This document shows, piece after piece, positions 10,128 to 64,000 of a DNA stretch of 64,000 bases. Source of the DNA: a virus; the IMG/VR virus record IMGVR_UViG_3300036861_000477; one strand, given 5' to 3'. The notes under the pieces were generated by a model. It was not told the origin of the DNA and did not search any database. It was given only the letters and a program-made list of their open reading frames with translations. The position numbers and the translations under genes are program-made. The first letter of the stretch is position 1, and every line of letters starts with the position of its first letter.

Positions 10128-10209
10128 CCCCGTAACCCCTCACGATGAGAACTTGTGATCTAGCACCGATTGTATATCGTTGGGAAGCGATTCTCCGGAG
10201 AGATCACTT

Positions 10210-12531
10210 TTACCCCTGACGAGTACGACTCGCGTTCGCGATCGCGTTCGCCTGCGAGTCCGCAGCGATCTTCGTCGCGTCACCGTCACCGATACCCGGA
10301 ACGGGGGCGGTCACGATCTGCGCACTGGTCTCACCGTTGCGCTTCCGCTGGCAAGGCTTGCATCCCGACACGTTCTTCACCTCCTTCTTAGATGACGTAG
10401 CTACACGACCCGCGGCTACCGACGGCCGCTGCGTCTCACCACCCGCACGCACTCGATCACGAATGCTCGCGAGCGTCTGTCGATTGTCGACGCCCAGCGA
10501 CGCGCGGATCTCGGCGAGCTGCTGCCGATGTGACTTGATCGACTCGGCGGACGCGGTCACCACCTCGTCGGTGGGTGCATCATCGTATACGGCGTCGTCA
10601 CCACCGTTCTCCCAGAACTTGATCGGCACCGCGCTCGCGATCACGACGCTGTCCTCGACGCGAACCGAGACGGTGTCGGTGGAGCGCGCGAAGCCCGGAA
10701 CGGGAACGGCCAGTGCGGCGACGAACTCCTTCCAACCGCGACGCTCGCGGTGCGGAGCCCAGTCACCGGACAGCTGACAGCCCATGAACCGCTGAAGTTG
10801 CTCGGCGGACATCGGGAGGATCGTGCCTGCGACCCACGGTACACCGTGCTTCTTGGACTCACCGACGCAGACGACCGCGGCGATCGAACACGAGTTGTCG
10901 TAGTGGCTCATACGGATGACCGGGTCGGCCGACGCGTGTGCGGACATGTGCCCGCAGTCCATCGTGATCACGCCAGTGCGAATGCGGTGTCCGCCCTCGA
11001 CGATGAACGGCCGGTTCATCCAAGAGGTGTAGTCCACGTTGCCCATCGGGATCGTGATCTTCTTGTCACGGAACGATCGGTGAGCGACGTCGCTTGGCCC
11101 GACCATGCCGAAGATGCGACCCTCGTCGGTGATCCAGACGGCACCAATCGGTGGCATCTCCGACGGTTCCTCGAACCACTCCATCGGTGGCAGATCGGGA
11201 ATGACAATGGTGTGCGACCCGTCTGCCACGATGACTCCGTTCGATTCCGCGGAGGCGACGATCACACCGTCGTCCACCAGGTTGATGGATGCCTCCACGA
11301 AGGCGGGCAGGTTAACCAGTGTGGCGCCTCGGATCCGACCGGCGTGGAAGATCATAAGCTCGGGGTTGGCGAGCATCGCAGCCATGATCTCGTCGTCGGT
11401 CGCGTCCTCAGGTTCGGCGGGGAAGACGAGTTCCACGTCCGCATCCTTGACGGAGTCGGCGTCGATCGACACACCTCGGAAGAAGCCACCCCGGAGCTTG
11501 TGCTCGGCCAGCTGGCCGTTCGGGTCGATCATGTCCAGCGTGCCACGACCCATGATCTTAGCGCCGTCTCGCCAGATCTCGGTGATGTTGCCGACGTTCA
11601 CCGACTCGTCGGTTCCGCCCCCGTGACTCGTGACACGCTGGAACATGAGTGGCACGGGAAGTACCGGCCACGTGAGTGAGTCCTCGGCGAACATCCGACC
11701 GTCACCGGTCTCGACGCCCTCGACAGCCAGAACACCCTCCCAGTCTTGCACGGTCTTTGGCTGCTCAGTTCGCCAAGGTCCAACTCCTGAGCCGTACGCA
11801 GGCATCTCAGAGTCCTTCATGCAGGTTCCATCGGGCATCATGTGTTGACCCTCGGGACAGTCACCTCCCGCCGGCGCATCGACCGGCATGTCGGCGAACG
11901 TCTGCTCCTCAACCGACTCAGTCGGGGTGCCCGGGTGCTGGTGGGGCGACTTACCCGTCGCCTCCTTGTGGTACTCGGCGCAGAGACCCTCGGGGTTGCG
12001 CACATACTTATCGAGCTGCTTCACGCAGCGCTCGAAGTCACCGGGCGTACCCCAGCGAATCTTGAGTGCACCCTCACCGTGCACCCAGTACTCGCGCAGG
12101 TTACGGTCACTGGCAAAGGTCTCGGTGAGAGTGGCATCGAAGGTGTCGACCGATTCGACAGCGGACTTGGACTCACTGGCGTAGAGTGCGCGAAGCTGAG
12201 CGGTCGCTTCTGCACGCGTCGCGTGGCACCCCTCGACTTCACCGTCGGTTTCCTTCACGACGGCGTAGGGTTCACCACCCGAGCACTTACTCGAGTTCTC
12301 GACGATTCGCCACGGCACGGTGTCGCTCCCTCCGTTGATCAGATCGTATACCGGATCTTCCTGAGGCTGCACTGTGCCACCCGCGGCCGTCAGCACGCCA
12401 CTTCGCGGAACCCTCAAGATCGCATCGATCTCACTTGGTGTGTACCCGGTGCCGGGTTCCTCGTCGGGTACGAACGTCCAGTCGACGTTCGTCTGGTCCG
12501 ACAACGCTGTGAGGTCGTTCGGTTCGGTCAC
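10210..12531 (-). CDS. Capsid maturation protease/scaffold with extra N-terminal modules
   Basis: Lies between MuF and MCP; WEGVLAVEGVETGDGR...PVPLM core and CQLSGDW motif. Confidence 0.65.
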   Translation of the reverse strand: MTEPNDLTALSDQTNVDWTFVPDEEPGTGYTPSEIDAILRVPRSGVLTAAGGTVQPQEDPVYDLINGGSDTVPWRIVENSSKCSGGEPYAVVKETDGEVEGCHATRAEATAQLRALYASESKSAVESVDTFDATLTETFASDRNLREYWVHGEGALKIRWGTPGDFERCVKQLDKYVRNPEGLCAEYHKEATGKSPHQHPGTPTESVEEQTFADMPVDAPAGGDCPEGQHMMPDGTCMKDSEMPAYGSGVGPWRTEQPKTVQDWEGVLAVEGVETGDGRMFAEDSLTWPVLPVPLMFQRVTSHGGGTDESVNVGNITEIWRDGAKIMGRGTLDMIDPNGQLAEHKLRGGFFRGVSIDADSVKDADVELVFPAEPEDATDDEIMAAMLANPELMIFHAGRIRGATLVNLPAFVEASINLVDDGVIVASAESNGVIVADGSHTIVIPDLPPMEWFEEPSEMPPIGAVWITDEGRIFGMVGPSDVAHRSFRDKKITIPMGNVDYTSWMNRPFIVEGGHRIRTGVITMDCGHMSAHASADPVIRMSHYDNSCSIAAVVCVGESKKHGVPWVAGTILPMSAEQLQRFMGCQLSGDWAPHRERRGWKEFVAALAVPVPGFARSTDTVSVRVEDSVVIASAVPIKFWENGGDDAVYDDAPTDEVVTASAESIKSHRQQLAEIRASLGVDNRQTLASIRDRVRAGGETQRPSVAAGRVATSSKKEVKNVSGCKPCQRKRNGETSAQIVTAPVPGIGDGDATKIAADSQANAIANASRTRQG

Positions 12532-15500
12532 GGGACTACCTCCAGTCGAACCAGTGTTGTGTAGTGCCCGCCCGTAGGCGGCAGCACTTCCTTAATGCGA
12601 TACTTAAGTCCCGCACCGAGAATGAGCTCCTGCTCAGTCTTATGCGAACTCACGGGATATGCCCACGCGGCGGGTGTTCCGGCCGGTAAGTCGATCTCAT
12701 AGGTGACAGAGCCACCAAACTTGCCACTCTTTGAGATTGATGTGCTCATGAATCCCGGGTCGGTCATGAGCTGTCCCGTGCGCTTCTGCAGCTCGGCGGC
12801 ATTCGCGTTGTTGTTACCGTAAAGATTAAACGGTGACCAGTCCGATCCGCGGAACACCTTCACGTTCTGCGGAATGGGTCGCATGCCCTCGGTGATGTTC
12901 TTCGCGTGCGTGGTCGCGCTGGGCGTGCACGAGCATTTTCCACGAAGGCAGCAGTTAATGGAACTGTACGTCGAACCGGTGTACGCTTGAATGCTACTCT
13001 TGGACTTAGCGGACCAAAGACCGTGCTGCTGATTCATCACCGCGTGCATGGCGTTGGCCTTGGTGAGACTCAGCTCAGGGAAGTTACCTGGCGTGGTCAA
13101 GCCCGTGTTGATCCCCGTGGACTTGAGGATCGACGGTGTGGCCGTGTTCGAGTTGGTACCACCGACGTTCAGTAGTGAACTCGCACTGAGACCCGTTCCA
13201 GCGGTCAGCGCACTGAACTCGTCCTTGCCCTTCTTCGTGCCCAGGTACTTCTTGATCTTATCCGTGAACGGCGTTGGCGACGTCTTCGTGCTCGTCGTGC
13301 CGTCCATTACCTCGAGGATCTGCCCGAGCGAGTACTGCGGGTGCGTGGATTGAACGGTGACGAGTTGGTCGAGCATCTTACTTGAGTCGGTCCACCACTT
13401 CACGTCACCGTTTGCGAACTGCGTCTTGATTTTTACCTTGTCGTTAACGCTCACAAGCGTGAGTGTCGGCACCGACGGAGCGGTTGGTGCGGTCACCTTG
13501 GGCGTGGCCGGCTTAGGTGTGACTACCTCACCGAGCGACCACGGACCCTTCGCACCCTGCAGTTCCTTGTACGCTTGACCCTTCGTCCACGTTTGAATGT
13601 CGCCCCAGGTGCCGTTGCCCAGCGGATCAACTTGCTGCACGATCTTGTTGTTCTTGTACACGATCCGCTGGATGCCGTTATCGTTGGTAGCGATAACCTC
13701 ACCCTCGGAGTACTTCCCATAGATGATCGCGTTGGTGAGCTTGTCGACCTTCTTAAGAGGTTTCGTCGAGACGGACGGTGTGCTTATCCCGGGCGAAAGT
13801 GTAGGCACACTCGATGTACTTGGCGTGTTCGGCACGCCAAATGTCGATGCAACATTCAAGTCATTGGACTCGTTCGCGACCTCCAGGATGTCACTCAAGT
13901 TGGATGAAACCCAGTTATACGCCGCTAGGTCAGTGTTCCATTGACCGTTGTCGTACTTTTGAAGCATTACACCCCACGAGGGAGCATTACCAATGACCGC
14001 GATCTGCATCGGCTTGCCGTCGTGTGGATCGGTCCATTCAGCGATGACCGTGCTACCCTTGATCTTTCCCGATGCGACATTGGTTTCGATCATCGCGCGG
14101 AACGTGTCTGCATCAGGCATCTTGAATGTGGGCTTACTTGATGATTTAGATGCGCTAGGTGTGCGGGGCGAGTTGGGCGCACTCGGCGACATCCACGCCG
14201 TAGGTGTGACGTCCTTGATCTCCTTGATCCACTGATATTTCTTAAAGTCCAGTGTATCAATTAGACCCAGATCACCGACGAACTGTTCTTCTTCCCACTT
14301 ATTCGTCTTGTGGTTGTACTTCTGCTCAGATAAACCAACCTTACCCGTCTTAGGGTCATCGATGGCAACGAGTCGATAAGAGACCGTGCCGGTGGTGCCA
14401 CTACCGATGACCTCGTTGTTCTTGTACTCGCCCGCAAGTAGCTTGGCACCAATAAGTTGACCACCGGCACTTGGAACAGTTGGAGTTCCACTCGGCACAT
14501 TGGTGTCATCCACCACACCTGGGGCAGGCGCGAACGAGTCGTACTTACCCATGTCAGTGGTGCCTAGAAAACCGTTCTTTGTGAACGATGATGAACCCGG
14601 AGTCCACGTGCCGTCCGGCGCCTTGTACTCCTCCTTAACACCCCACTTACCGCCCGGCGATTGGACCGCTTTGAGTCGTACACTGGTTCCGTTGTAGTCC
14701 GATCCGTGCGCGATGATCTGTCCCGGTGTGTAGTGCCCCTGCTCTAGCGCGTCCCAGATGGAAGCACCACTAACGGCACCTCCGCCACCCTTCTTAATGA
14801 ACTTACCGTGTGCACCACGCGGGTGATCCAGTGGATCGAAGTCTGCCGCGGTAAGTACATCGGACTCACCAGTCGACTCACCATAGCGTCCGGTCAGCGA
14901 GTGATCCGTCACCTCACCGGCAAACGCGACTCGCACACGGTCGAAGCTGATCGGCCCTAAGCGATCTTGAACAGATGCGGGAATCATCTGGTCATCGGTG
15001 TACGCAAGAGTAATGTGCGGAACCCAGGGTGTGTGATTCTCAGGAATCTTGTCCGCGAACGCGTCCTCCACCTGCAGGTGGAGTGCCTGCTTTAACGCGA
15101 CGAGCTTCGAGTCACCACCCCTAACACCCAACACCACGGCGGTGTCCATGTCGGGATCGTGCGGGTTGAAGACGTTCACCGAAAACGTCTCCGTGGCGAT
15201 CGGCGCGTACGTACCCGCGAGGTCGGCGACGATCTGCTGAACTTGCGCCTGCTCCTCAGGGCTCCAGTTGGCTGCCTCACCGAGGTAGAGCACAGTGGTG
15301 TGAAGCTGGTCGGCGTCCTCAAACCCGGCCACCTCGAGGCAGCGTGCGTCGGCCTCAGTCATGCGGAAGGCGATCATCGCGCCCGTGTGAACCTCGGCGG
15401 CAGCGGTCAGCACCTTGTCCTCCGATGGAACATTAAGATCGTAGGCGAGGGAGCAGCGGCACTGGATGATTTCACTCGCGGGTGCGTCCGGATCGCCCGG

Positions 15501-28626: not shown

Positions 28627-30126
28627 CTAAACGATCTTCATCATTAGTGGGACACCTTGCGGAAGCGTCCAGCCCACCCAGCGTGCGCCGTTACTACGCG
28701 TCTTTTCCCACCCGATTCCTTCCAGCGCCTGCGAGAATCCCTTGCTGCCAAGCGGATCTTTACGATCCTCAGACTCGGCTTGACCTTTGATCCAGTACCT
28801 GTAGATGTCATATAGATCGGTTGTTCGTGCACACCCTGATGCAGGTATCGTCTTAGATATCTCAGCAAGGTACTCCGCATTTAGTGCCCACTCGATGAAC
28901 TCAGCCAGGTGTCCCATACCTTGGCGAGCTTGGTCCGTCGCGATACGGTACTTCTCCGGCATGTCCGAGAGGTCACGGGCCAATGGCAAACTCGCACCAA
29001 AGATGACACGAGCCAAGAGTGCTTGCCGCATCTTAACGTCCGCCAAGAACCGCGCCCGAATCGCTGGGTCTTCCTTCTCGGGTGGGAGTGTCTGATCCAT
29101 GTGAATGGACAAGATTCGCCGTCGTGTTGCCACATCAATTCCGGAGATGCGTGGAAACTCATTCGCCACGATCATTGCCACGAACCGTGGAATGTGTTCG
29201 ATGATTCCCGCGTAGAGATCACGATAGGGAAGTGAGTCCGAGCCACCCGTGAGGCGCTTAACCTGGTCTGCGTGAAGTGCCCACGACTTAGAACCTTCGG
29301 TCGCGTAAGCGATTCGCTTGAACATCGCGCGAACGAGGTCAGGCCGTGGCTTGTCATCCAGGTTGCTGCGGAACACACCTGGGCTAATTGCGCACGCGTA
29401 TGAACCAAAGATCTGCTGAAGTGCGGCGAAGAACTGTGACTTACCACTCGTCGTGCCACCAAAGAACACCGGCAAGATGCGCAAGTCGTTACCCACATAG
29501 AGTGAGTGACCTAGTAGCTTAAACACATATGCTTGACACTCAGGATCTGGAATGAATGTCTCGAGGAACAACTCCAACTCCACCGAGTACCCGGGTTCCA
29601 CGGCCTCGGGAATAAACTCCACACCGGCGCAGAGTGAGTTCATGTCGTTAGGCTGCGCTGAACGTAAGCTGAATGTGCGCAAGTCCACGGTGCCGTTTGG
29701 TACGACGAAGTCCGAGACCGACTCATCAAAGTTGTGCAGTTCCAGCTGGATGCGAGGATCAGACTTCGCGACGCTTAGCATCGCACGCCGCTTATCTACC
29801 GCCTCAAGCTTTGTGATCGCCTGTAGTAGTGCGTCGCGGTTTTCACCCGTGGTCTCGAGCGCGAGGTCTTTCCGACGCTGGATGACACTCTGTGTGAGCG
29901 CGAACGCGGCGAGACCTTCACGCGTGTCAGGCTGCCAGTGAAAGCCGTTCCAGATAGCCCAGCGCTTTTCATCGGTGATGTACCGAACCGTGTCCTCAAA
30001 GAGATGAACGAACAGTCCCGCGTTCGTCGTATCGGTGATCGGGTTAAGGTCGATCCCCGCATTAAGATCGATCCAGTGGTGAGCTGAGACCGTTGTGGCT
30101 TCACCCTGTTGCTGCTCACTCACCAA
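28627..30126 (-). CDS. D5/P4-family SF3 helicase (primase partner)
   Basis: D5-N motifs (WAIWNG.HW, VVPNGTVDL); Walker A variant GGTTSGKS; KRLTGGSD..YRDLY. Confidence 0.85.
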   Translation of the reverse strand: MVSEQQQGEATTVSAHHWIDLNAGIDLNPITDTTNAGLFVHLFEDTVRYITDEKRWAIWNGFHWQPDTREGLAAFALTQSVIQRRKDLALETTGENRDALLQAITKLEAVDKRRAMLSVAKSDPRIQLELHNFDESVSDFVVPNGTVDLRTFSLRSAQPNDMNSLCAGVEFIPEAVEPGYSVELELFLETFIPDPECQAYVFKLLGHSLYVGNDLRILPVFFGGTTSGKSQFFAALQQIFGSYACAISPGVFRSNLDDKPRPDLVRAMFKRIAYATEGSKSWALHADQVKRLTGGSDSLPYRDLYAGIIEHIPRFVAMIVANEFPRISGIDVATRRRILSIHMDQTLPPEKEDPAIRARFLADVKMRQALLARVIFGASLPLARDLSDMPEKYRIATDQARQGMGHLAEFIEWALNAEYLAEISKTIPASGCARTTDLYDIYRYWIKGQAESEDRKDPLGSKGFSQALEGIGWEKTRSNGARWVGWTLPQGVPLMMKIV

Positions 30127-31259
30127 CGACTCCTAATGATGCTAACCCGACCGATGTCTTCCCGACGTTCAGTTACGCCGGATTCCTCATTCACATGCTC
30201 TGTCGTTATGACTGGTCGCCACTTCGGCAGCTCCTCACCGGGTTCCACGGTCTGCCAGATCCGCTCGATCTTATACTCCACGTGCTCGAACGGCATGAAC
30301 CACGCAGCCTGCGGCGGCTGGACCATCTTCTCCGACGACCAGTACTTACGTGCCTCATCAAGTGCTCGTTCCTTCGTCGCGCCGAGCTTTCGCAGCCGGA
30401 ACAGCATATCGTTGAAGAACTCGTCCCGCTCGCCGTCGTGGACACCTTCCGTCAGCGCGCGCTTGTAGTCGTAACCCGTGATGCCGCCGCTTCCTCCACC
30501 CACGTCGCCGCTCGCGCCGATCGCACCACGCACACCACCCCGAAGCTCACGGGATCCCTTTGCCTTTAAGAGCCACATCAGTAGCGATACCGACAACGGT
30601 GTCACTCCCCCGTGTGATCCTCCACCGGTGATCCAGTGGCGATTGTCGAACCCGGGCGTCGGCACCGCGACGTAGCCGCCCTCCGCCTTGATGTCCGTCT
30701 TAGGAAGCACGCGGTTGTGTGACTTGATGATGAACCCAACCCGCGTCTCGTAGAGGAGGTGAAGACCTCCTGAGCCCGTGCGCTGCTGGAGCGTCGGCGG
30801 TAGCTCCGTGCCGGTGAGTCCCTCCCAACGGTCCATGATCTCGAGACCCGTCGTTCCCGCCCACGGCCCGGTCTCGACGGCCGCTGCCTCGAAGTCGATC
30901 ACGACGAGTCCTGACCCGTGTGGGCGCAGTCCCGTGCGAACGGCGAGGTAGCCGAACGGATGACGCTCGATCATTTCAGCGTAACGGTCGATGTTGCGCG
31001 TCGCCGCGTAGAACCCATGGCAAGTTAAGCAACCACACTCTTGCCTCACGTGCTGCCAGTCCGCCTTGGCGCACAGGTCACAGTTCTTCAACGGGGACTT
31101 GTCTCGTCCCAGGACGAACACCGCCCAGCCACGCTGGACGTAGTCGGTTGCGACTCGGATCTTCTCCGCGATGAGAGCGTGCAGTGATGCCCCTCGCGCG
31201 TAGTCATCTGGTACTATCGGCACTAGAGGTTCTCCTTCCTCTGGTCCTTGCACGGACAA
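30120..31259 (-). CDS. Bifunctional DNA primase/polymerase
   Basis: GWAVFVL..K.P, Zn motif C..C...C.C..CHGFYAAT, VVIDFE, TGSGGLHLLY, GGYV. Confidence 0.85.
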   Translation of the reverse strand: MSVQGPEEGEPLVPIVPDDYARGASLHALIAEKIRVATDYVQRGWAVFVLGRDKSPLKNCDLCAKADWQHVRQECGCLTCHGFYAATRNIDRYAEMIERHPFGYLAVRTGLRPHGSGLVVIDFEAAAVETGPWAGTTGLEIMDRWEGLTGTELPPTLQQRTGSGGLHLLYETRVGFIIKSHNRVLPKTDIKAEGGYVAVPTPGFDNRHWITGGGSHGGVTPLSVSLLMWLLKAKGSRELRGGVRGAIGASGDVGGGSGGITGYDYKRALTEGVHDGERDEFFNDMLFRLRKLGATKERALDEARKYWSSEKMVQPPQAAWFMPFEHVEYKIERIWQTVEPGEELPKWRPVITTEHVNEESGVTERREDIGRVSIIRSRW

Positions 31260-31289: not shown

Positions 31290-31490
31290 TCACTTCTTGA
31301 ACGGTGTTTCGGTCGCGACCTCGGAGATCATGTCGTCGAGGAGCGCCTGCTGCCGCTGGATGACCCGGGCGCCTAGCGCGATGAAGTGCCGTGCCGCGTC
31401 GTTACGACTGCCGTATGTGCGATCGGCGTAGTCGTCTAGGACATCACGAAGTTCGTCGTCGATGTACACACTCATATGTGCCTTAGCCAT
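31290..31490 (-). CDS. Ribbon-helix-helix DNA-binding protein
   Basis: MSVYIDDELRDVLDDYA...SRNDAARHFI pattern. Confidence 0.65.
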   Translation of the reverse strand: MAKAHMSVYIDDELRDVLDDYADRTYGSRNDAARHFIALGARVIQRQQALLDDMISEVATETPFKK

Positions 31491-54208: not shown

Positions 54209-55285
54209 TTAGCGAGTGTTCTGAAGCCCTAGCGGGTTCTTGTGCACGGACTTACCCGCTTCAGCCCATGCTTCCGCCCAGCGCCACGCGTTGTCCTCAA
54301 TCGTGAGGCGTTCACGCACGATCTGACGATCGCGCTCGCTCTCCTCCTGCCGACGGCGCCAGTTCGTCGCTAGATCGGTCACGATGCGTGTCCACTGGAC
54401 GTGGCTCTTGGCAATGTTGCCGATGCCGTACTGCCGCTGAAGCTTCACGTACTCGACACGTTCGGACGAAACACTGGGTACGCCCAGCGCCGCATACTCG
54501 AGAGGCTTGAGCCACGACTTCGCGGAGTTGAAACGAGTGTCCGCCGTGGGTGCAAGTCCCACGCCCACTTGGTTGAGCGCCGCCGGCCACTCGTGGAAAT
54601 CCACCCCACCGGTAACACTGACAAGTGGTGTAATGACAGATCCCAGCGCGTCGATGACGCCCAGGTGGGGTCCCACGATGCGAAAGTGAATGCCCGCACG
54701 GATCCACTTCGGAAGCGAGCGACTCAATTCCTGCACGTCCTGTGGGTGCGTCTGGATCGCGCCACCCCACGCGACGATCGCGCTATCGTGATGCTCGTAC
54801 TGCGTGAATTGCTTCGGTACGAAGTTCGGCAGCACCACACTCTTACTGCCATACACCTTCTGCAACGCCGGTGTCGACACGGTGACCAGCGTTGCGGCAC
54901 GACACGTGTCGACCACGTTCTGCCACGAGTGATCACGCTGCCCGGTGGTCGGGTGAAGCATCCGCCACGCGGGATGCAGCGGATCGATCGCCGATAGATC
55001 ATCATCCATGTCGATAATGACGGCGATGCCCTTCTTCTGTATGAGCTTCACTGCCTGTGTGAGGTAGCGATGCGTCGTTCGCTGGAGCACGATCACGTCC
55101 GCGTCGGGTGGCACCTGGATGTCCACCATCGTGTCGCGCACCATACTCGCCTTGAACTGCTCACGCTGACTCTTCGGACTTATGATCACCACATCGTGGC
55201 CCTGGGCCTTAAGTGCGAGAGCGGGCCAGATGAGCCGATAGTAGCCGCAGCCGGTGATATCCGCGGGATACACGTACACCTTCAC
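54209..55285 (-). CDS. GT-B (GT4-like) glycosyltransferase
   Basis: GCGYYRL, DMDDD and KSWLKPLEYAALGVP. Confidence 0.85.
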   Translation of the reverse strand: MKVYVYPADITGCGYYRLIWPALALKAQGHDVVIISPKSQREQFKASMVRDTMVDIQVPPDADVIVLQRTTHRYLTQAVKLIQKKGIAVIIDMDDDLSAIDPLHPAWRMLHPTTGQRDHSWQNVVDTCRAATLVTVSTPALQKVYGSKSVVLPNFVPKQFTQYEHHDSAIVAWGGAIQTHPQDVQELSRSLPKWIRAGIHFRIVGPHLGVIDALGSVITPLVSVTGGVDFHEWPAALNQVGVGLAPTADTRFNSAKSWLKPLEYAALGVPSVSSERVEYVKLQRQYGIGNIAKSHVQWTRIVTDLATNWRRRQEESERDRQIVRERLTIEDNAWRWAEAWAEAGKSVHKNPLGLQNTR

Positions 55286-55512
55286 TGCATTTCCTCCGCG
55301 GCTTCTTCCATGTACCACTTCCACCAGTTACGTGCGTACACGTAACCGTAGGCGAACGCGGAGATGATAAAACCCCACTGACGCGTGTACAGACCGTAGG
55401 CGACCCAGAGAATCTGTGCGAGGAAGTTGATCATCCAGCCGATCTTCAAGCGTGATCCGGCGAGTAAGAGACCCGTGACGCCAATGCCCGCGAGTACGAA
55501 CGACCAGATCAT
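55282..55512 (-). CDS. Small PnuC-like membrane protein
   Basis: Two to three TM segments; GW....Q.LW..Y......G pattern. Confidence 0.55.
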   Translation of the reverse strand: MIWSFVLAGIGVTGLLLAGSRLKIGWMINFLAQILWVAYGLYTRQWGFIISAFAYGYVYARNWWKWYMEEAAEEMQ

Positions 55513-55516
55513 GTCA

Positions 55517-56092
55517 TCACCACTTCGTGGGAAGACCACTGGTGTTGCCCTGGTGATGGCACCAGAACCACGTCCGCTCGACGAGGTGTGAAATCTTCGC
55601 GCCGGCCTCAATGCAACCCAGTGTGAAGAACCGGTCCTCACCCGAGTTGATGTTGTGCCCGCGGTTCAGCGCTTGGAAGCCGACCTGCTTCGCGAGCTCC
55701 GTTCGGACGAGTGTGGTGATCGTCGTCTCGATCGGGTTCGCTGGATCGAACGGTTCGGTGAAGTGTGTGGAAGGGAACGGGTCGCCACCGCCGAGCATCT
55801 CGAACCACGAGTACACGAAGTCCGCCTCGGTCTCTAACGCATGCGCCAGCAGACGCTCGAGATGCTGAGTCTTGAACATGTCGTCGTCATCAAGGAACGC
55901 GACCCAGGGCGTGGTAACCGCGTCCAGAGCTCTCTGTCGCGTGGCCGCGGCACCTTCCCGATGGGTATCAACGGCGATGGAGATCGCGGCCGCGGGAAGA
56001 GTCTGACGGGCGACACTGCCGATGGCTCGTTCCAGCAGGTGCGGACGAACGGGGATGGACGGGATGACCACCGTGATGTCATTCTCTGTCAT
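55517..56092 (-). CDS. GT2 glycosyltransferase
   Basis: ITVVIP, GAAATRQ and VAFLDDDD. Confidence 0.85.
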   Translation of the reverse strand: MTENDITVVIPSIPVRPHLLERAIGSVARQTLPAAAISIAVDTHREGAAATRQRALDAVTTPWVAFLDDDDMFKTQHLERLLAHALETEADFVYSWFEMLGGGDPFPSTHFTEPFDPANPIETTITTLVRTELAKQVGFQALNRGHNINSGEDRFFTLGCIEAGAKISHLVERTWFWCHHQGNTSGLPTKW

Positions 56093-56104
56093 AGTGCTAC
56101 TCTA

Positions 56105-56749
56105 TCACCACGGAGGTTGACCCCACTTCTCAACGAAAGCTACACGGTCGCGCCCCGCCTGCTGGGCAAGTTCAGCGGTGGTCGTGCTGTTCGGGTAAAG
56201 ATGTTGAATCTTCAACCCTCCAACCAACACGGCACCCCCCTTCTGGCGTGCCTGGTACTCGATGTCATTGTCCCCGTACCACCAGACGAAGCGTTCGTCC
56301 GCCATGATACCGGCCTTGCCGCTAAGTGCGAACGCGAAACCACTCATCCGCAAGCCGTCACGCACGGGCCACGTGAGTGCGTAGTCCGCGTTGAGCCCGT
56401 ACACATCGGGAAATGCTGCCACGACGTTGTACTGCCCGATCGCGGTCGCAAGCCGCTGGACGAACTGTGGCGGCACGATCACATCATCATTCAGCACTGC
56501 GACGACGTAGTCACCTGAAAAGTTCTCGGACGCGGCCACGTAGCCCAGGCCCACGTTCCACCAGAACGAGATGTTCAAGCGATCCACGAAGCGGATGATG
56601 TGTACTCGATCCGTCTCGGCGAAGTCGAGTCGAGGTTCATAGCCCGTGTCCACGATGACGACGTTCACATCATCATTAAGAAGTCGTGCGACGAGAGCAA
56701 AGAGCTCGGTACGACGTTCTTTCGAGGGAATCACTGCCCAGAGTTTCAC
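56105..56749 (-). CDS. GT2 glycosyltransferase
   Basis: WAVIP, WN.G, VLNDD and WWYGDND. Confidence 0.8.
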   Translation of the reverse strand: MKLWAVIPSKERRTELFALVARLLNDDVNVVIVDTGYEPRLDFAETDRVHIIRFVDRLNISFWWNVGLGYVAASENFSGDYVVAVLNDDVIVPPQFVQRLATAIGQYNVVAAFPDVYGLNADYALTWPVRDGLRMSGFAFALSGKAGIMADERFVWWYGDNDIEYQARQKGGAVLVGGLKIQHLYPNSTTTAELAQQAGRDRVAFVEKWGQPPW

Positions 56750-57312
56750 GGTGTCCTCCCGTGCTTCACATCCCATGATCCGTTGCCCCAGTCACCGAAG
56801 CGGTACTGCCATGTCACCTGACCGGTCTCAGCGAAGCGCGCGCCCTCATCCATGAGTCGGTTCCAGTTGGCCCAGTCAATCCAGCAATGACGGTCAGTCT
56901 TGTCGGTCCAGCGACCGAAGATCTCACGTCGTGCGACCACCGCACTGGGTGGAAACCAGTTCGTGAGGCGCATATCTTCCCAGTTGACGTGCCACGGTTC
57001 GATCGTCCCCGGTGCACGATTCACGAGATCGAACCGTGAGGCGACCACGTCCACATCATTGTTAAACGTGGCAAGACACGCCTCGAGGTGCTGCGGGTAC
57101 CATACATCATCATCGTGTAAGAACGCGACAAGGTCGGTGTTCACCGCATCGAGGAGCCGGTTTTGGTTGGCGACTTCGCCCAGCCGACGAGGATCGATAC
57201 CAATGATGATGTCGTCCGGTTGGCGTGTCTGCTTACGAACGGACTCCAGCGCCTCCTGTAAGAGTTGCTCACGCTCCATAAGAGACACGATGACCACGCC
57301 GATGGTCATCAC
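56746..57312 (-). CDS. GT2 glycosyltransferase
   Basis: ALESVRKQT and VAFLHDDD.W.P.HLE. Confidence 0.85.
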   Translation of the reverse strand: MMTIGVVIVSLMEREQLLQEALESVRKQTRQPDDIIIGIDPRRLGEVANQNRLLDAVNTDLVAFLHDDDVWYPQHLEACLATFNNDVDVVASRFDLVNRAPGTIEPWHVNWEDMRLTNWFPPSAVVARREIFGRWTDKTDRHCWIDWANWNRLMDEGARFAETGQVTWQYRFGDWGNGSWDVKHGRTP

Positions 57313-57866
57313 CGTGAGAGCCTCGGCTCGGGTGAGTTCGGAAAATCACGCTCCGCCGGCAACATCGCGAGCGCGTACACATCGTGTGCTTCGGCGTTGT
57401 ACTCAACCTCGACCGCGTCGAAGTACTTATCCAGCGTCCATCGCAAGTCGTCCGGTGACACGTTGGCATACCACTCACCCGGCGGAACGACGTGATTACC
57501 GCTCGCATCGTGCGCCGGACGCCCAAATGAGGCGCACGTGGAGATGAACACACCTGGACCTGCTGGGTCGAGGTGGTACCACATGGTTTTGATGATGTCC
57601 TGCCAGCGCTCCGCGTGCTCGAACAGTTCGGTGGCAATGACGATATCATACCGTTCATCGGAGCGCCACTCGGCGGCATCGGCGACGATGTCCACATCAG
57701 GCCCCTGGCGCAGATCGAGCCCGGTCCACTTCGTGTTGGGTAGCTCGACGCGAACGGTGCCGTTCACATTGCGACCGCCGACGTCCAGTCCGTTGAGTGG
57801 CGCAAGACGATCGATGCCGGACTTTTCAAGCAGCCGTCGAAATCCCATGTATGCTGCAGCGTGCAC
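57309..57866 (-). CDS. Class I SAM-dependent methyltransferase
   Basis: LDVGG, GLD...G..VDIV.DA and ELFEH. Confidence 0.85.
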   Translation of the reverse strand: MHAAAYMGFRRLLEKSGIDRLAPLNGLDVGGRNVNGTVRVELPNTKWTGLDLRQGPDVDIVADAAEWRSDERYDIVIATELFEHAERWQDIIKTMWYHLDPAGPGVFISTCASFGRPAHDASGNHVVPPGEWYANVSPDDLRWTLDKYFDAVEVEYNAEAHDVYALAMLPAERDFPNSPEPRLSR

Positions 57867-57915
57867 GTCTTATCCCTTCGTGGTAAGCGAGACAGCTACA
57901 CTATACTGGGTGAAG

Positions 57916-58599
57916 TCACCAAACCTCTTGTGCTGTGTATGACATCCAATCGGTCGCGTCCGTCGTCATCGTACCCGTGCCGCTCTCTCTAAGCCAGAGT
58001 GGCTGGAATGTATAGGTACCGGCGCCATCACCACCGTTTAAAGCATCAGGGATGAGAAGAAAACCGGTGGCCGTCGCGTGAACCGTGTTGAAGACGAACT
58101 TAGTGATGTCATACGTGCCACCGCCGCCTAAGAGCTGCACACCAAACTTTGTGACCGTACCGTTCACCGTCGTGAAAGCCGTTACTGCAAAGTCGAAGCG
58201 AATCTTTGTTTCGTCGAACTTCTTAGTGAAGGCTTTAGTAAGACCCGCACCACCTAGGTTAGTATATGACGCAGATGTAGTCGTATCGGCACCGATGGAC
58301 CCGTTGACGTTGTACGTAAGAAACGACTGCTCGAGCGTGATACCCGTCGTGCCGATGATGTAGCAGCCCTGGGGTGGAACGATGAGCACCATGACTCGTT
58401 GATCGGCACCGATGTTGCCGATGAGACTTTGCGCGCGACTGGGCTGTGTGTCACCGTCGAGAACGACGAACACATTGGTGGGAAAGCTGTTCGCTGTGAC
58501 GGTTCCGGGCACAAGTCGCCACGTAAGACCAAGCCGAGTCGCGTTGTCTACGATCGCTGCGGTGCCCGCGCCAAAGATGCCTGAGACGTCGCCACTCAT
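57916..58599 (-). CDS. Minor tail protein
   Basis: Coupled to upstream tail genes; N-terminal OB-like GTVT...V.LDGD followed by a beta-rich C-terminus. Confidence 0.6.
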   Translation of the reverse strand: MSGDVSGIFGAGTAAIVDNATRLGLTWRLVPGTVTANSFPTNVFVVLDGDTQPSRAQSLIGNIGADQRVMVLIVPPQGCYIIGTTGITLEQSFLTYNVNGSIGADTTTSASYTNLGGAGLTKAFTKKFDETKIRFDFAVTAFTTVNGTVTKFGVQLLGGGGTYDITKFVFNTVHATATGFLLIPDALNGGDGAGTYTFQPLWLRESGTGTMTTDATDWMSYTAQEVW

Positions 58600-59696
58600 G
58601 AGTAGGCCTTTCGCATGACGTGTCCCATCGCGGCACCTTCAGTAAGCGGAAGTGTCCACGCCAGCTCGAGCCAGTTCTCACCCTGCCAGACAATGACATC
58701 GTATGAATCATGGCGCGGATCCGGCACCGTTGCCAACTCAACACGCTCAAGCACCGTCTGGCGCAGGGCTAAATTCTTGGCGATCGCAGCAATCTGCGCC
58801 TGAGTGTTCACTTGACGTTCAATGACACTCGGAATTACAAACCCACGGTTCTCGATTGAGTGAGGTGCAGTGATTGGTACATCCGCGCGACCGACGGTGG
58901 GTGTTGCTGCCGTGTCCTCAGTGGCTGCACCGTTTGAGACGACGATGAATCGATTAGGTGCAGTGAGTAGATCATCCGTCTCAATGATGCTATCACGAAT
59001 GACGCGATTACCCACGTCGAGATCGAACGTCGGAACGGCGGTCGCCGGATCGAACGCACGGATGAAGTGCATGTGAGTATCATTACCAAACCATGGTGAA
59101 AACCAGTCGCCATCCAGTGCCATCTGTTCAATGATCTGGCCTCGTGTCGTTCCGGCGTTCCACGCACCGATGGTGTAATACTGTGTAGGCTCGATCTCTA
59201 ATGTGACAGCAATGTTCACAAGTAGCCGACGAATTGCCTTGTCACAATTAGCAAATGATGCCGGAGACCCGATGTTCACGGCGATCTGTGGTGAGAACGC
59301 GGTTTCAATCTGCTGATCCACCATGAACATCTCGTCGTACAGTGTCGCATTCGTGATGCGCCCATTCGAGTAAAAGAGACGTGCGCGGTCCGCGAACATG
59401 TAGCGACCCAGTGGGTACTGCACACCACCCAAGATCATATAGACGAGAATGCGTGACTGGATGACGTTGACGATGGCGGTGTCCGCAACACCCAGTGTGA
59501 GACCGGTGATCTGTCGCTTGATCGTTCGACTCGTGTCGTGTGACAGTGTTGGCACGGTGTCCCGAAGTGGGTGGATGTCGATCGGTGACTGCGCGCCGAT
59601 CTCGTTGATGAGCACGAAGCGGAATGTGGCCGCACGCTGTCCCACGTAGTCCGGCATATCCAGCGCTACGAGTGCCTCCGTGGTAAGCAGCGACAC
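58596..59696 (-). CDS. Minor tail (hub-like) protein
   Basis: YPLGRYMF, PNRF.V and P.PRH.SYD patterns; synteny. Confidence 0.7.
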   Translation of the reverse strand: MSLLTTEALVALDMPDYVGQRAATFRFVLINEIGAQSPIDIHPLRDTVPTLSHDTSRTIKRQITGLTLGVADTAIVNVIQSRILVYMILGGVQYPLGRYMFADRARLFYSNGRITNATLYDEMFMVDQQIETAFSPQIAVNIGSPASFANCDKAIRRLLVNIAVTLEIEPTQYYTIGAWNAGTTRGQIIEQMALDGDWFSPWFGNDTHMHFIRAFDPATAVPTFDLDVGNRVIRDSIIETDDLLTAPNRFIVVSNGAATEDTAATPTVGRADVPITAPHSIENRGFVIPSVIERQVNTQAQIAAIAKNLALRQTVLERVELATVPDPRHDSYDVIVWQGENWLELAWTLPLTEGAAMGHVMRKAYS

Positions 59697-59704
59697 ATTA
59701 CCTC

Positions 59705-62700
59705 CTACGTCACAGGTGCCGCTTCATCAGCGACTTCGGTAACTCTAATCTGTGCGAGGTAGAGTCGTCGATTGCGCTTCGTCTCGCCGGCAGGGACGAG
59801 CACGTTCGCGAACCAACGGTTACCGAGCTCGTCACGCACGCAGACGTACGGCAGGTCATCCCACGCAAGATCACGAAGTCCCTTAAAGTCCGCCAGGCTT
59901 GGCACGGCAATGGCAGCGGCCTGCACGAGGATCACACGGTCAAACGTCTCACCACCTCGCTCCAGTGGGCGGAACGCGACCTGGAAGTCACGACCGTACA
60001 TCCGCTGGAACACCTGGGTGTCCGCCTCAGGGAAGACGAACGTCTCGACAGGGTTACCCTGCCACGACATCGGATACGCGAGACTGCTGTTCGGCGCCTG
60101 ATTCGACGTAAAGATCAAGACACTGTTGCCACTGCCGGTGGTGGTCACTCCCGGACTCGGCAGCGTAGCGGCCCCAGTCACCCAGGGACCAGCGAAACCG
60201 AGCGCGTCGACGGATCGAACACGGTAGCGAGATTGCATCCCTACGCGTGCCTCATAGTCGGCGAACGAGAGTGAGCAGAGGTCCGCCGTCTTAAGCACGG
60301 TCTGCCAGTCGGTCAAGTCGTCGGAACGCTGGACCTCGATGCCGCCCTCCCACAGGTTGGCGGCCACGGCGTAGAAGTTGTCCCAGTTGACGAGAACCGG
60401 TAGCGGGTTGGTGTTGCCGGCGTTCAGAGCGGCACCGAAACCGACACGAGTACTGGTTGTAAGTGATGTGTCTGTCACGGTGAGCATCCACGAACTTGGT
60501 GGGGTGATCTTCCACGCGCGAGCCATGATCGTGCTGCCGACGACGCGAATCTCGGTGGTGAACTTGTCACCTACCGTGAACGAGTCGAAGCCGATCACGG
60601 TGGCGAGTTGAGTGAAGACACCGCCCACGAACTTGCCGATTAAGAGGTTAACGAGCAGTGTTCCACCCGGCTGAAAATCCAGCTGGGCGAAGTAGTAGTT
60701 GCTACCGTCCGTAAAGCGGGCCGTCACTTTGTGAATGACGGATCCTACGAACGGGAAGACGGTGATCGTGGACTCAGCCCGGGCGTACTGGTCCGTCGCA
60801 CCGACGTCGATAGTCGCGTAGCGGAAGACACCAACGGATCCGAGCGACATAACCGCTTCGTGACCGGTCAGGTAGTAGTCGATGCCAACCGTGCCACCAC
60901 TGAGCGTCCACGGCTGTCCCGTCGGCGCGACGCCGTACGACCCGGTGACGGCGGCACGCTCGAAGTCATCGCACACCGCAAGCGCGCTCCACGAGAGGGT
61001 GTTGTAGCCGATCGCGGAGGGTACGCAGCCAGCCGGTACGCCGCACTCCGTTGCCACCCCGGTAAGAGCCTGAGAGCCCGTACCGACGACGAATCCGGTC
61101 ACCAGCGGCGCGTCCTGCGCCAGCATGACCGTGAGATCCGCCTGCGCGTCGGTAGCGGTGGCAGTGGCCGAGGTCGCGTTCCACTGCGCGTTAACGGTCG
61201 CGCCGTTCGGCGGGTCATAACCGGCGGTGTTCGACGCTGGATTGGCGCCAAGTGGCACCAGGGCAGCCGCACCGAGGATCTGGTACTGCCCACCGATCGG
61301 TGCGCCGAGTGCGTTCCAGTCGATGTTGAAGTTGGCACCACCGGTGACCAAGATGGGCGCACCGAGGGTAAGCGTGACTTCCTTCCAGCCGTCGATGACC
61401 TCGGGCAGTGCGTCGAGTTCATCGGGCGTGATGGTGGCGACCTGCGTCGCGGAGTTCGCTAGGCCGACCTTTAGCGGAATGGTGTTCGCTCCGCTGAAGC
61501 GGCGCGCGTAGAACCTCACCTGGGTAAACGGAACACTTGTTGCCACGCTGCCACGAGGTGCTACGACCTGACGAGCGTAGACACTGTTGCTGAACACACC
61601 GGCCGCTACCTGTGCACCGTACGTGTGTGACGCCGTCGCGAGGCTGCCACTGGTGTAGATGCCGATGTCCGGGATGACGAAGTCTTCCTCCAGCGTGAAG
61701 TCATCACCGACCGTCGTGGTCTCGGTGATCGTTCGGCCGACGACCGGTTGCAGTGTGTTGGGTTCTCGGATCGCGGCGTGAACGGGTGCGCCGGTCGTGG
61801 CAGGCTGGTTGCCCAGGCTGCGACGTGACGCGACTACGACGTAGTTTCCCGGACCGATCGACGTTGAACCCAGCGCCAGTGCCGTGTTTCGCAGCTGGAC
61901 CAGGTTGAGTCCCTTGACGAACTGGTTCTGCGGAAAGCCCGCCGTCATGATGCGACGACCACCGTGGAGAACTCGCTGTTCCTCACAGTAGAAGATCTCC
62001 AGCGCGCAGTAACCGACTCGCACGGCACCCAGGCCTAGACCGTTGAGCGTGCCCGTGAGCATGACGCGGTAGACGTTGGTCGCCGTGTCGAAGTCGAACA
62101 GCGTGGTGCCAAGCCAGGGGTAGATGGCGCTGCCGTTAAGTTCGTCCGTGTTGGCCGCCCAGAACGGGTTCAACTCGGTGAAGTCAACGTGGCCGAAGTT
62201 GGTGACGAACGCGAAGTCACCGACCGCACCCTCCAAGCCGTTCTGGTAGGTGAACTTGGACGCGCGGTTGACCGACCGAATGATGGACACGTCAATCTGC
62301 GCGAGGGCGCTTACGCCGGACACCGCCATGGCGGTGTAGATCAGTCGCACGTCTACGATGCGCTTACCCGAGAGCTGGGCGTTGACCGCTGACGTGTTGA
62401 AGTTGATCCCGATGGCATCGGTCAGCGCCTGCGCGGACGACGTGAACTCGATGTACGCGTTGTCGGTGGGGACGGTCAGCGCGGTGTAGTCACCCGTGGT
62501 GGACGTGACCTGCGCGCCGGTGATCGAGATGGCCATCGCGGGCACCACAACCGAACGGATCGGTCCCGAGTCTCCAGCGTGCAGCTCGGGGTAGATGCTG
62601 ATGAACTCGACCACGTTGTTCAGCTGCGACGACGGTAGATCGGCGACACCGATGTGCCCGGACACCGGCGTGATGGACGTGTCCAACCGCACGACGTAGC

Positions 62701-62794
62701 CGCGCTCGGTGACGGTGTCGGGCGTGTAGTCCGCCTGCCGAACCGGTGCCCACTCCATGCCGATCACGTGCGGTGAGTGCGGGTTGTAGTCCAT
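59705..62794 (-). CDS. Large minor tail protein, copy A-prime
   Basis: 1029 aa; colinear paralog of 1..1668; beta-rich lectin-like insert; Dit-like C-terminus. Confidence 0.8.
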   Translation of the reverse strand: MDYNPHSPHVIGMEWAPVRQADYTPDTVTERGYVVRLDTSITPVSGHIGVADLPSSQLNNVVEFISIYPELHAGDSGPIRSVVVPAMAISITGAQVTSTTGDYTALTVPTDNAYIEFTSSAQALTDAIGINFNTSAVNAQLSGKRIVDVRLIYTAMAVSGVSALAQIDVSIIRSVNRASKFTYQNGLEGAVGDFAFVTNFGHVDFTELNPFWAANTDELNGSAIYPWLGTTLFDFDTATNVYRVMLTGTLNGLGLGAVRVGYCALEIFYCEEQRVLHGGRRIMTAGFPQNQFVKGLNLVQLRNTALALGSTSIGPGNYVVVASRRSLGNQPATTGAPVHAAIREPNTLQPVVGRTITETTTVGDDFTLEEDFVIPDIGIYTSGSLATASHTYGAQVAAGVFSNSVYARQVVAPRGSVATSVPFTQVRFYARRFSGANTIPLKVGLANSATQVATITPDELDALPEVIDGWKEVTLTLGAPILVTGGANFNIDWNALGAPIGGQYQILGAAALVPLGANPASNTAGYDPPNGATVNAQWNATSATATATDAQADLTVMLAQDAPLVTGFVVGTGSQALTGVATECGVPAGCVPSAIGYNTLSWSALAVCDDFERAAVTGSYGVAPTGQPWTLSGGTVGIDYYLTGHEAVMSLGSVGVFRYATIDVGATDQYARAESTITVFPFVGSVIHKVTARFTDGSNYYFAQLDFQPGGTLLVNLLIGKFVGGVFTQLATVIGFDSFTVGDKFTTEIRVVGSTIMARAWKITPPSSWMLTVTDTSLTTSTRVGFGAALNAGNTNPLPVLVNWDNFYAVAANLWEGGIEVQRSDDLTDWQTVLKTADLCSLSFADYEARVGMQSRYRVRSVDALGFAGPWVTGAATLPSPGVTTTGSGNSVLIFTSNQAPNSSLAYPMSWQGNPVETFVFPEADTQVFQRMYGRDFQVAFRPLERGGETFDRVILVQAAAIAVPSLADFKGLRDLAWDDLPYVCVRDELGNRWFANVLVPAGETKRNRRLYLAQIRVTEVADEAAPVT

Positions 62795-62958
62795 GACCCT
62801 AATCTATCACTGTGGATGTTTTCACCACTGGACCTGCACAAACGTGGGCCCAGCTGGTTTACATATGTCACGCCTCCCGATTCAATTGACTCACGGCCGT
62901 CCACACAGGACGGTCAACGACAACGACAAAGACAGAGACGATGACAGGGAGAACGACG

Positions 62959-63498
62959 ATGACCAAGGCCAAGACCAAGACCACACTCGACGAGCCCAAC
63001 CCGATCGCGACCGAACCCGCGACCGAACCCGAGGTCAAGCGGCCCAACCCCGCCGCAGTCCGCCAGTGGCGCGAGTCGCTGGAGGTCTCGCGCGTCGCGC
63101 TGGCCGACATGACCGGCCTGCCGCTCAGCCGGATCTGGGCCGCCGAGCAACCGGACAAGACCGTCACCGACGAGCACCGTGCACTGATCATCGGCGCGCT
63201 GGACGGCGTCGAGAAGAACGGCTTGCCCGAGAAGTACCAGCGACCGAAGGCGGAAGCCCAGGCCAAGGCGTCCAAGCCGAAGCAGCCGACGAAGGCGGCA
63301 CTGGAGGAGCGGCTGAGGCTCGTCGTGGAAACACTCGCGACGACCGCCGAGAAGAAGACGCTCAAGGAGCTGCGCGAGGTGATCGAGCAGGCGAGCCGGT
63401 TCGCCAGCGGGTGGCCGGACGGTCAGCCCAGCTTCGAGCTGGCCGCCGACGAGAGCGCACCTGCCGTCGTGGTCGACGCCCCGGTGATCGATGTCTAA
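62959..63498 (+). CDS. XRE-like HTH protein
   Basis: VRQWRESLEVSRVALADMTGLPLSRIWAAE pattern. Confidence 0.65.
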   Translation: MTKAKTKTTLDEPNPIATEPATEPEVKRPNPAAVRQWRESLEVSRVALADMTGLPLSRIWAAEQPDKTVTDEHRALIIGALDGVEKNGLPEKYQRPKAEAQAKASKPKQPTKAALEERLRLVVETLATTAEKKTLKELREVIEQASRFASGWPDGQPSFELAADESAPAVVVDAPVIDV

Positions 63499-63515
63499 GT
63501 CTTCACAGCCATCAC

Positions 63516-63549
63516 AGCGAGGGAGCGGTCATTTGACCGCTCCCTCGCT
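63516..63549. terminator. Bidirectional terminator
   Basis: Perfect 15-bp stem AGCGAGGGAGCGGTC-attt-GACCGCTCCCTCGCT between convergent genes. Confidence 0.8.
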
Positions 63550-63566
63550 TTCGTTGGGGTCACTAT

Positions 63567-64000
63567 TTAGCTGCTTCGCGCGTAGTGGTGCACGCTACCC
63601 AGTGTCCAGGGTTGCCCGGTTCGTGTGCGGTACCCGCGTTCGTTGAGTTCGCTCGTGATGGTGTCGATGGTTGCTCCCTCACGCACGCGCTGGGTGATGT
63701 ACATCGTTGCCCGCCACTCGCTGGTAGCCGCCTGGCCGGCCGTTTCCTCGGGTTCGTCGGTGATACGAGTAAGTAGGCGCTGGACCTGCACCGGCTGCCA
63801 GACGCTCTCCTTGCCAGACAGCAGTGGGTAGCCCTTGCGCGTCAAGTGGCGCGCGATGTACGAGGTCGAGTGACCACGAGCGTGGAGCGTCTCGACGACG
63901 TGCGCGAGATCGGCTGGCACGGGCGTCGGCTTCGGCCCCGGCTTGATGCCGTGATTCTTCTTCGCTGCCGCGAGCGCGACCTTGATTCGCTCGGAGATGA
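63567..64000 (-). CDS. Serine recombinase, C-terminal part (truncated by window end)
   Basis: The frame stays open to the edge: ISERIKVALAAAKKNHGIKPGPKP (resolvase helix E and linker), then two recombinase-type modules (IARHLTRKGY...W and ITSELNERGYRTRTGQPW). Confidence 0.7.
   Translation of the reverse strand, partial: ISERIKVALAAAKKNHGIKPGPKPTPVPADLAHVVETLHARGHSTSYIARHLTRKGYPLLSGKESVWQPVQVQRLLTRITDEPEETAGQAATSEWRATMYITQRVREGATIDTITSELNERGYRTRTGQPWTLGSVHHYARSS

Follow-up and report, generated by a model that had tools for sequence, protein, structure and literature searches.

The 64,000-nt stretch of the IMG/VR virus record IMGVR_UViG_3300036861_000477 that we analysed (the window, one strand, 5′ to 3′) carries two homologous genes for a large tail protein, copy A and A′, and our subject is A′ and the recombinase-bearing DNA in which it lies. 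Copy A (1–1668, minus strand) is an open reading frame (ORF) that continues past the left edge: the first 556 residues of the resident central tail-fibre or tail-tip protein are visible, and the remainder lies left of the window. A′ (59705–62794, minus strand) is an intact second central-fibre gene by its ORF and by BLASTP, starting with ATG, free of stops and encoding 1029 amino acids (aa). BLASTP aligned every one of the 556 visible residues of A with A′ in a single colinear stretch (42% identity, 59% positives, E = 5e-146). This alignment holds the motifs quoted in a preliminary description of the same DNA and bears out the colinear homology claimed there. At the DNA level the two genes share short patches only (81–85% identity over 40–107 nt) and one exact 25-mer. 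Both genes are intact in the record, and both keep the invariant residues of the family.

The two genes have different upstream neighbours. Copy A starts 1 nt past the stop codon of the tape-measure gene (1670–4168, minus strand; 832 aa; phrog_305, E = 1.5e-53), as in its relatives, whereas A′ follows a divergent regulator gene and not a tape-measure gene, just as the preliminary description had it. GC content is 62.6% in A′, 56.4% in A and 55.1% in the two genes after A′. The earlier spot counts put the genes after A′ too low, at 43–50%. Because GC at third codon positions ranges from 0.62 to 0.88 across the phage's own genes, a span that exceeds the difference between A′ and A, we rejected GC content as a sign that A′ is foreign.

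Beyond A′ lie two convergent genes. The first (62959–63498, plus strand), whose exact product was called on an independently assembled 12.9-kb contig described below, encodes a probable Xre/Cro-type helix-turn-helix (HTH) regulator of 179 aa. It is weakly Xre/HTH_3-like at residues 26–90 (phrog_14076, E = 0.065; Atlas neighbours with HTH_3, scores 0.87–0.90) and has no hit in Pfam. An HTH gene had been announced at this place and a weakly Xre-like one is there, but the ORF taken for it (62793–63536, plus strand, 247 aa) was rejected as a spurious Arg/Asp-rich frame overlapping the 179-aa gene. This frame is the longest there, misled the first reading and is almost certainly no gene. The second gene (63567–64000, minus strand) is visible by its 3′ end, which encodes the last 143 residues of a resolvase/invertase-type serine recombinase (PF07508, E = 9.9e-10; phrog_125, DNA invertase, E = 8.7e-5). 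On the 12.9-kb contig the full gene encodes 275 aa with a PF00239 Resolvase domain and ends 0.8 kb from the start of A′; the recombinase reported beside A′ is therefore present, as a small resolvase/invertase-type enzyme and not as an integrase. Between the two genes, a strong hairpin at 63495–63570 (inverted repeat I1, 37-nt arms, 73% complementary, core GCGAGGGAGCGGTCA/TGACCGCTCCCTCGC) is probably a two-way terminator, which a consensus terminator scan missed because no T run follows it. Reading of the divergent intergenic region between A′ and the regulator gene (62795–62958) revealed an extended −10-like motif, TGaTAGATT, at 62809–62801 on the minus strand, ending 6 nt before the A′ ATG. 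As a sequence match, this motif would fit the independent, possibly leaderless start of A′ that had been proposed, but a consensus scan of the upstream region found no promoter.

The remainder of the window, at ~60% GC, reads as a phage. A structural operon runs along the minus strand from ~21000 down to 1 (terminase, portal, MuF-ADP-ribosyltransferase fusion, major head protein, head-tail adaptor, tape-measure protein and copy A). Replication and DNA-modification genes occupy the plus strand at 31476–54108; genes for glycosyltransferases, for a methyltransferase, for a 227-aa protein and for a 366-aa tail protein lie on the minus strand at 54209–59696. Both the structural and the replication genes follow the order of the family, and the gene order is the same as in a JGI contig of 61,528 bp and in two more. 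The phage also has its own primase genes in 28627–31259 (minus strand; 379 aa and 499 aa, phrog_5852 and phrog_1156). The 366-aa gene (58596–59696, minus strand; phrog_1887, E = 3.9e-8) and the 227-aa gene that follows it (57916–58599, minus strand) matter for what comes next, since their homologs mark the place of the big tail gene in related phages.

We collected 91 related loci, 82 from JGI and IMG/VR and nine from bacterial genomes, eight of the latter being Micromonospora prophages. The big tail gene, scored by its N-terminal domain within 10 kb, is single-copy in all 91. The order is tape-measure gene (upstream wherever it was matched), big tail gene and 366-aa homolog; the last comes immediately after the big tail gene in 76 of the 82 metagenome and IMG/VR loci, these 76 being the ones that reach it. 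The 227-aa gene, too, has a homolog at the corresponding place in 63 of these 82 loci, as it does in the Micromonospora prophages. Neither the HTH gene nor the recombinase gene has a match within 10 kb in any of the 91 loci. Contigs bearing the big tail gene are mostly 55–66 kb long. Exact 40-mers of both window ends had no match in IMG/VR, megablast of both ends against GenBank phages found none either, and a scan of JGI metagenomes with A′ returned a single relative, 48% identical.

The Micromonospora prophages (loci L083–L090, locus coordinates ~10001–15000) carry a short form of the big tail gene and an insert of ~1.2 kb between it and the 366-aa homolog. Locus L083 has a separate piece farther downstream (13319–13648) that matches residues 693–796 of the lectin domain of A′, as if this domain were encoded alone.

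Is A′ a duplicate of A? In a tree of the N-terminal 575 residues, A falls within a clade with 14 proteins of other phages, and the long branch leading to A′ lies outside it (supports 89/95 and 91/83). Fourteen proteins of other phages are therefore closer to A than A′ is, and A′ is not a recent duplicate of A. The best relatives of A′ are 47–48% identical to it and those of A 52–56%, as against 42% between A and A′. Together with the single copy in relatives, the tree supports a different lineage for A′ and, as the preliminary description had suggested, a gene that does not belong to the canonical tail operon. Two paralogs native to the phage lineage, fixed there long ago, would account for two intact genes and for a divergence as old as 42% identity implies. 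Such a pair is nonetheless extremely improbable, given that a second copy within 10 kb is missing from all 91 related loci, that A′ branches outside the clade of A and the 14 other proteins, and that the same phage occurs elsewhere with a gene other than A′ before the 366-aa gene (see below).

An independent assembly separates the record into two pieces. By look-ups of exact products, we located Logan contigs of run SRR11742962, an accession for which our literature search found nothing. The first contig (60,703 bp, window −926 to 59776) contains the whole canonical phage: it ends on one side 80 nt upstream of the 366-aa gene and on the other within A, at codon 865, which lies 927 nt to the left of the window. 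When this contig is closed on itself, the tail operon takes the order found in all relatives, from the tape-measure gene through the central fibre A to the 366-aa protein, followed by the 227-aa protein and the glycosylation genes. The second contig (12,907 bp, window 60218 to 73124) starts with codons 1–859 of A′, an exact match that we verified. After A′ come, in order, the 179-aa gene, the 275-aa Resolvase-domain protein, ORFs of 141, 223 and 161 aa, a 644-aa Prim-Pol+AAA_25 protein, two small ORFs, a 503-aa Resolvase+Recombinase+Zn_ribbon protein and five more small ORFs; the small ORFs, ten in all, have no Pfam hits on record. By its domain composition the 503-aa protein, encoded ~6 kb past the window, is a large serine integrase. 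Since the phage has its own primases and the second contig a separate 644-aa Prim-Pol+AAA_25 gene, the two pieces have independent replication initiators.

We therefore consider it probable that the record represents a mobile element of ~13 kb joined, inside a tail gene, to an otherwise ordinary soil actinophage genome of ~61 kb. The phage part, from position 1 to ~59750 of the window, is likely a complete genome of the canonical soil-actinophage family, ~61 kb if circular. The element part would then begin at ~60250 and extend ~9 kb past the window, some 13 kb in all with A′ as its end gene, an extent in which we place the same better-than-even confidence. The element is presumably circular or mobile.

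A competing reading is a chimera of two complete related phages, with A′ contributed by a second full phage genome in the sample. The assembly graph does branch within the conserved C-terminal domain of the tail protein, and many related phages share soil metagenomes, as two of the relatives do in sample 3300005471. Yet A′ is preceded by a divergent regulator and a resolvase gene instead of a tape-measure gene, the 12.9-kb contig carries an integrase and a PrimPol protein with no structural-gene Pfam hits among its listed genes, and the length of the record leaves no space for a second phage genome. Two-phage chimerism is thus very unlikely. The preliminary description had named a chimeric assembly of two phages as the case that would overturn it, and what we find comes close to that, except that the partner appears to be a mobile element and not a second phage.

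Where do the two pieces meet? A 441-nt part of the window, 59777–60217 (A′ codons 860–1005), is in neither Logan contig. Using 12 relatives as stand-ins for the unseen part of A, we mapped codon 865 of A, where the phage contig ends, to codons 853–860 of A′; the element contig stops at codon 859. De Bruijn graphs break contigs where two sequences become identical. Because the breaks coincide to the codon in two genes with 42% identity, we infer a shared segment of ~0.45 kb, hereafter R (59747–60247, A′ residues ~850–1015), which spans the gap between the contig ends, would be near-identical in A and A′ and would form the join of phage and element. R would thus be common to A and A′ within their conserved C-terminal domain. 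Across distinct phages, the R part of this domain has a median identity of 52% and reaches at most ~86% among the pairs listed. DNA-level identity between A and A′ in R would therefore mean a recent exchange between them.

The length of the record agrees with two passages through R: the two contigs plus twice the 441-nt gap give 74,491 bp, compared with 74,717 bp for the record. Full-length A is not in the protein collection at 305–973 aa or at 974–2780 aa, nor is it a representative of a 50% cluster. Since A′ of the same record is present there, the ends of the record probably cut A, as expected of a circular path that was opened inside the gene.

How could the phage and the element have come to share R? 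The most likely mechanism would be homologous recombination in R between the two in a common host, and we take recombination as the presumed origin of the join. The exchange could have been a single crossover of the Campbell type or a gene conversion within R. Its outcome would be a graph of two circles sharing R, in which each gene stays a complete reading frame either way. Such a graph has two solutions, one circle of ~74.5 kb or a 61.1-kb phage together with a 13.3-kb circular element.

Under the second solution, the record is an assembler's walk through two separate replicons, to which we give only just short of an even chance. Three observations favour it: (i) a 2,679-bp contig (JGI 3300036860, also in Logan SRR11742948) is 100% identical to window 58153–59599, a comparison that covers its bases 1231–2679, and carries an identical 366-aa protein, while its cut upstream gene encodes 374 aa that are not A′ 656–1029; (ii) a cointegrate would be ~22% longer than the relatives; and (iii) it would split a conserved operon by 13 kb that include genes on the opposite strand. 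A control look-up with A′ 1–859 showed that cut products are indexed. The different upstream gene in the 2,679-bp contig means that the same phage occurs in a second sample with a non-A′ gene, most simply A, at the junction. Under the first solution, the record is a real cointegrate in which the element separates A from the 366-aa gene and has R as a direct repeat on either side. We regard this cointegrate as a serious possibility, at somewhat less than even chances: some assembler did join the pieces, possibly on read evidence, and a few differences within R would let reads phase through. To anything other than these two solutions we leave a small share of the probability. The insertion into the tail operon that was initially proposed is consequently one of two readings. 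A′ does stand beside recombinase and regulator genes with its own upstream region, but the join runs through the stretch where the independent assembly breaks.

Several points weigh against this account of the record. The identity of R in the two genes is deduced from contig break points, and the contigs could also have been broken by strain microdiversity with a common starting point in the two genes. That the far end of the element joins R as well follows solely from adding up lengths, with 226 nt left over. Of the element, nine tenths are known only as gene lengths and Pfam hits from the other assembly. The mobility of the element lacks comparative support, since relatives of the resolvase and HTH genes were not found: the resolvase fragment had none in IMG/VR, GenBank phages, PLSDB plasmids (tblastn) or 404 Actinomycetes genomes, and the HTH gene had none in IMG/VR, the sole place searched. 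Finally, the assembler of the record may have had read-pair or long-read support for the join. Among the relatives, a search for mosaic pairs that would betray recurrent crossover at the same point matched only duplicate contigs at DNA identities of at least 90%.

What kind of protein is A′? Searches of Pfam, PHROGs and PDB sequences found no match. An AlphaFold (AF2) model built from 24 homologs (mean predicted local distance difference test score 74.6) gave as its best Foldseek match the central fiber gp20 of mycobacteriophage Douge (8zdp_v, E = 2.7e-10, probability 1.00), with the tail-tip complexes of lambda and T1 ranking below. VIA-align superposed A′ on Douge gp20 with a Z score of 18.1, 441 residues being aligned over model positions 79–814 with a large global root mean square deviation (rmsd), as the domain orientations differ. 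A′ residues 610–811 matched CBM66 with a Z score of 18.8 (rmsd 2.1 over 157 residues). The protein can thus be divided into an N-terminal part (1–600), a ConA/CBM66-like lectin domain (602–814) and a conserved C-terminal domain (817–1029). Going by the model, A and A′ are central tail-fibre or tail-tip proteins with a lectin-like middle domain.

Like Douge gp20 (PDB 8zdp/8zdq) and lambda gpJ (PDB 8k35), the proteins are large, all-beta and multidomain, with a lectin-like domain, and copy A follows the tape-measure gene. The tape-measure-adjacent position typical of this class is found for copy A and for the relatives with a tape-measure match, but not for A′, and the A′ model has the fold similarity to a solved central fibre (Douge gp20). 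A′ departs from the class in having no sequence match to solved structures or Pfam families.

The tail-tip family has a long form of ~1030 aa and a short form of 820–880 aa that lacks the lectin domain. Its most conserved part is the C-terminal domain and its most variable part the N-terminal 600 residues, with median pairwise identities of 52% and 35%, respectively. Receptor-binding tail proteins usually show the reverse, and in lambda gpJ, too, the pattern is the opposite. On this pattern of conservation, the C-terminus of the family may be the attachment end.

The preliminary description had interpreted the region as a recombinase-HTH-tail cassette inserted in the tail operon of one phage, which could give alternative or heteromeric tail tips; in such a model, the serine recombinase next to A′ would do the switching. 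A small invertase/resolvase-type serine recombinase does lie 0.8 kb from A′, both tail genes are intact with the family's invariant residues kept, and the record as assembled puts A′ upstream of the remaining tail genes. The three genes, however, are one end of a ~13-kb block that has its own replication and integration genes (the PrimPol-helicase and the large serine integrase), and no such cassette is found in any of the 91 related loci. A host-range switch fares no better. A and A′ share one strand, and in the window we found no inverted repeat of at least 14 nt that encloses A′ or connects its surroundings with copy A; the scan returned only 13–14-mers at chance level and the terminator hairpin. 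Moreover, the part that would be common to the two genes is C-terminal, not a constant N-terminal part. On these three grounds (no inverted repeats, one orientation, a C-terminal common part) we rejected an invertible switch, and the cassette as a whole is unlikely.

These features also set the locus apart from the known invertible tail-fibre switches, such as the G segment of Mu with Gin and the C segment of P1 with Cin. As in Gin/Cin/Hin-type systems, a small serine recombinase gene stands beside alternative tail-fibre coding sequence, but flanking inverted repeats are missing here, and the two genes are complete, on the same strand and divergent from residue 1, with the inferred common part at the C-terminus. 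Another parallel is offered by the adhesin loci of T-even phages, in which tail-fibre cassettes are exchanged by homologous recombination at conserved motifs. There too, a divergent specificity part is bounded by a conserved stretch usable as a crossover site. In our case, unlike T-even cassette exchange, a self-replicating element with an integrase would act as the donor, and its apparent product, a cointegrate, keeps both genes instead of cleanly replacing one by the other.

Actinomycete integrative and conjugative elements (AICEs) are actinobacterial elements of 9–24 kb with a serine or tyrosine integrase and a prim-pol type replication protein. The element resembles them in size, integrase, prim-pol type replication protein and actinobacterial setting, but no FtsK/SpoIIIE- or Tra-type hit is among the precomputed Pfam hits of the contig genes. 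To our knowledge, AICEs do not carry phage tail genes.

Phage satellites do so in at least one case: the Streptomyces satellite MiniFlayer carries a tail-fibre gene (PMC10690885). Satellite integrases are typically of the tyrosine type (PMC10690885). Like phage-inducible chromosomal islands (PICI), P4-like satellites, MulchRoom and MiniFlayer, the element measures ~13 kb, has an integrase, a primase-helicase-type gene and small regulators, and was found with one phage. The combination expected of a satellite, an integrase and an own replication initiator within ~10–18 kb, is present in the 503-aa and 644-aa proteins, as read from the gene list only. The element differs from satellites in four respects: (i) its integrase is a large serine recombinase; (ii) no capsid, packaging or interference genes are recognisable in the gene list of its contig; (iii) no chromosomal copy was found when the resolvase fragment was compared with the 404 Actinomycetes genomes; and (iv) its tail gene is homologous to the central fibre of the putative helper, with which it seems to share the 3′ part. 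We know of no satellite with a homolog of its helper's central fibre, and we regard the assignment of the element to phage satellites as a lead rather than a result.

The range of bacteria that a phage can infect is set by its tail-tip proteins, and the acquisition of new ones has mostly been reconstructed afterwards from mosaic genomes. If the join is real, the record would capture a single-crossover cointegrate of a phage and a self-replicating element with a foreign tail-tip gene, which would be an intermediate on the way to replacing a tail gene. Should the two be separate, a small mobile element would encode a tail tip compatible with its helper, which has not been described as a strategy of satellites. 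If the record is no more than an assembly walk through a repeat, it is a useful caution that "circular" viral contigs that are ~20% longer than their relatives and carry a duplicated structural gene can be two joined replicons. In its most far-reaching form, which we put forward tentatively and hold to be rather unlikely, the element is a satellite-like integrative element of soil actinobacteria with its own central tail-fibre gene, whose attachment (C-terminal) domain is kept identical to that of the helper by recombination, and which serves a lytic-looking phage family as a mobile donor of host-range determinants. A′ would presumably affect host range in that case: the element could give tails built by the helper a different tip, or its recombination into the helper at the shared stretch could be the first step of tail-tip replacement.

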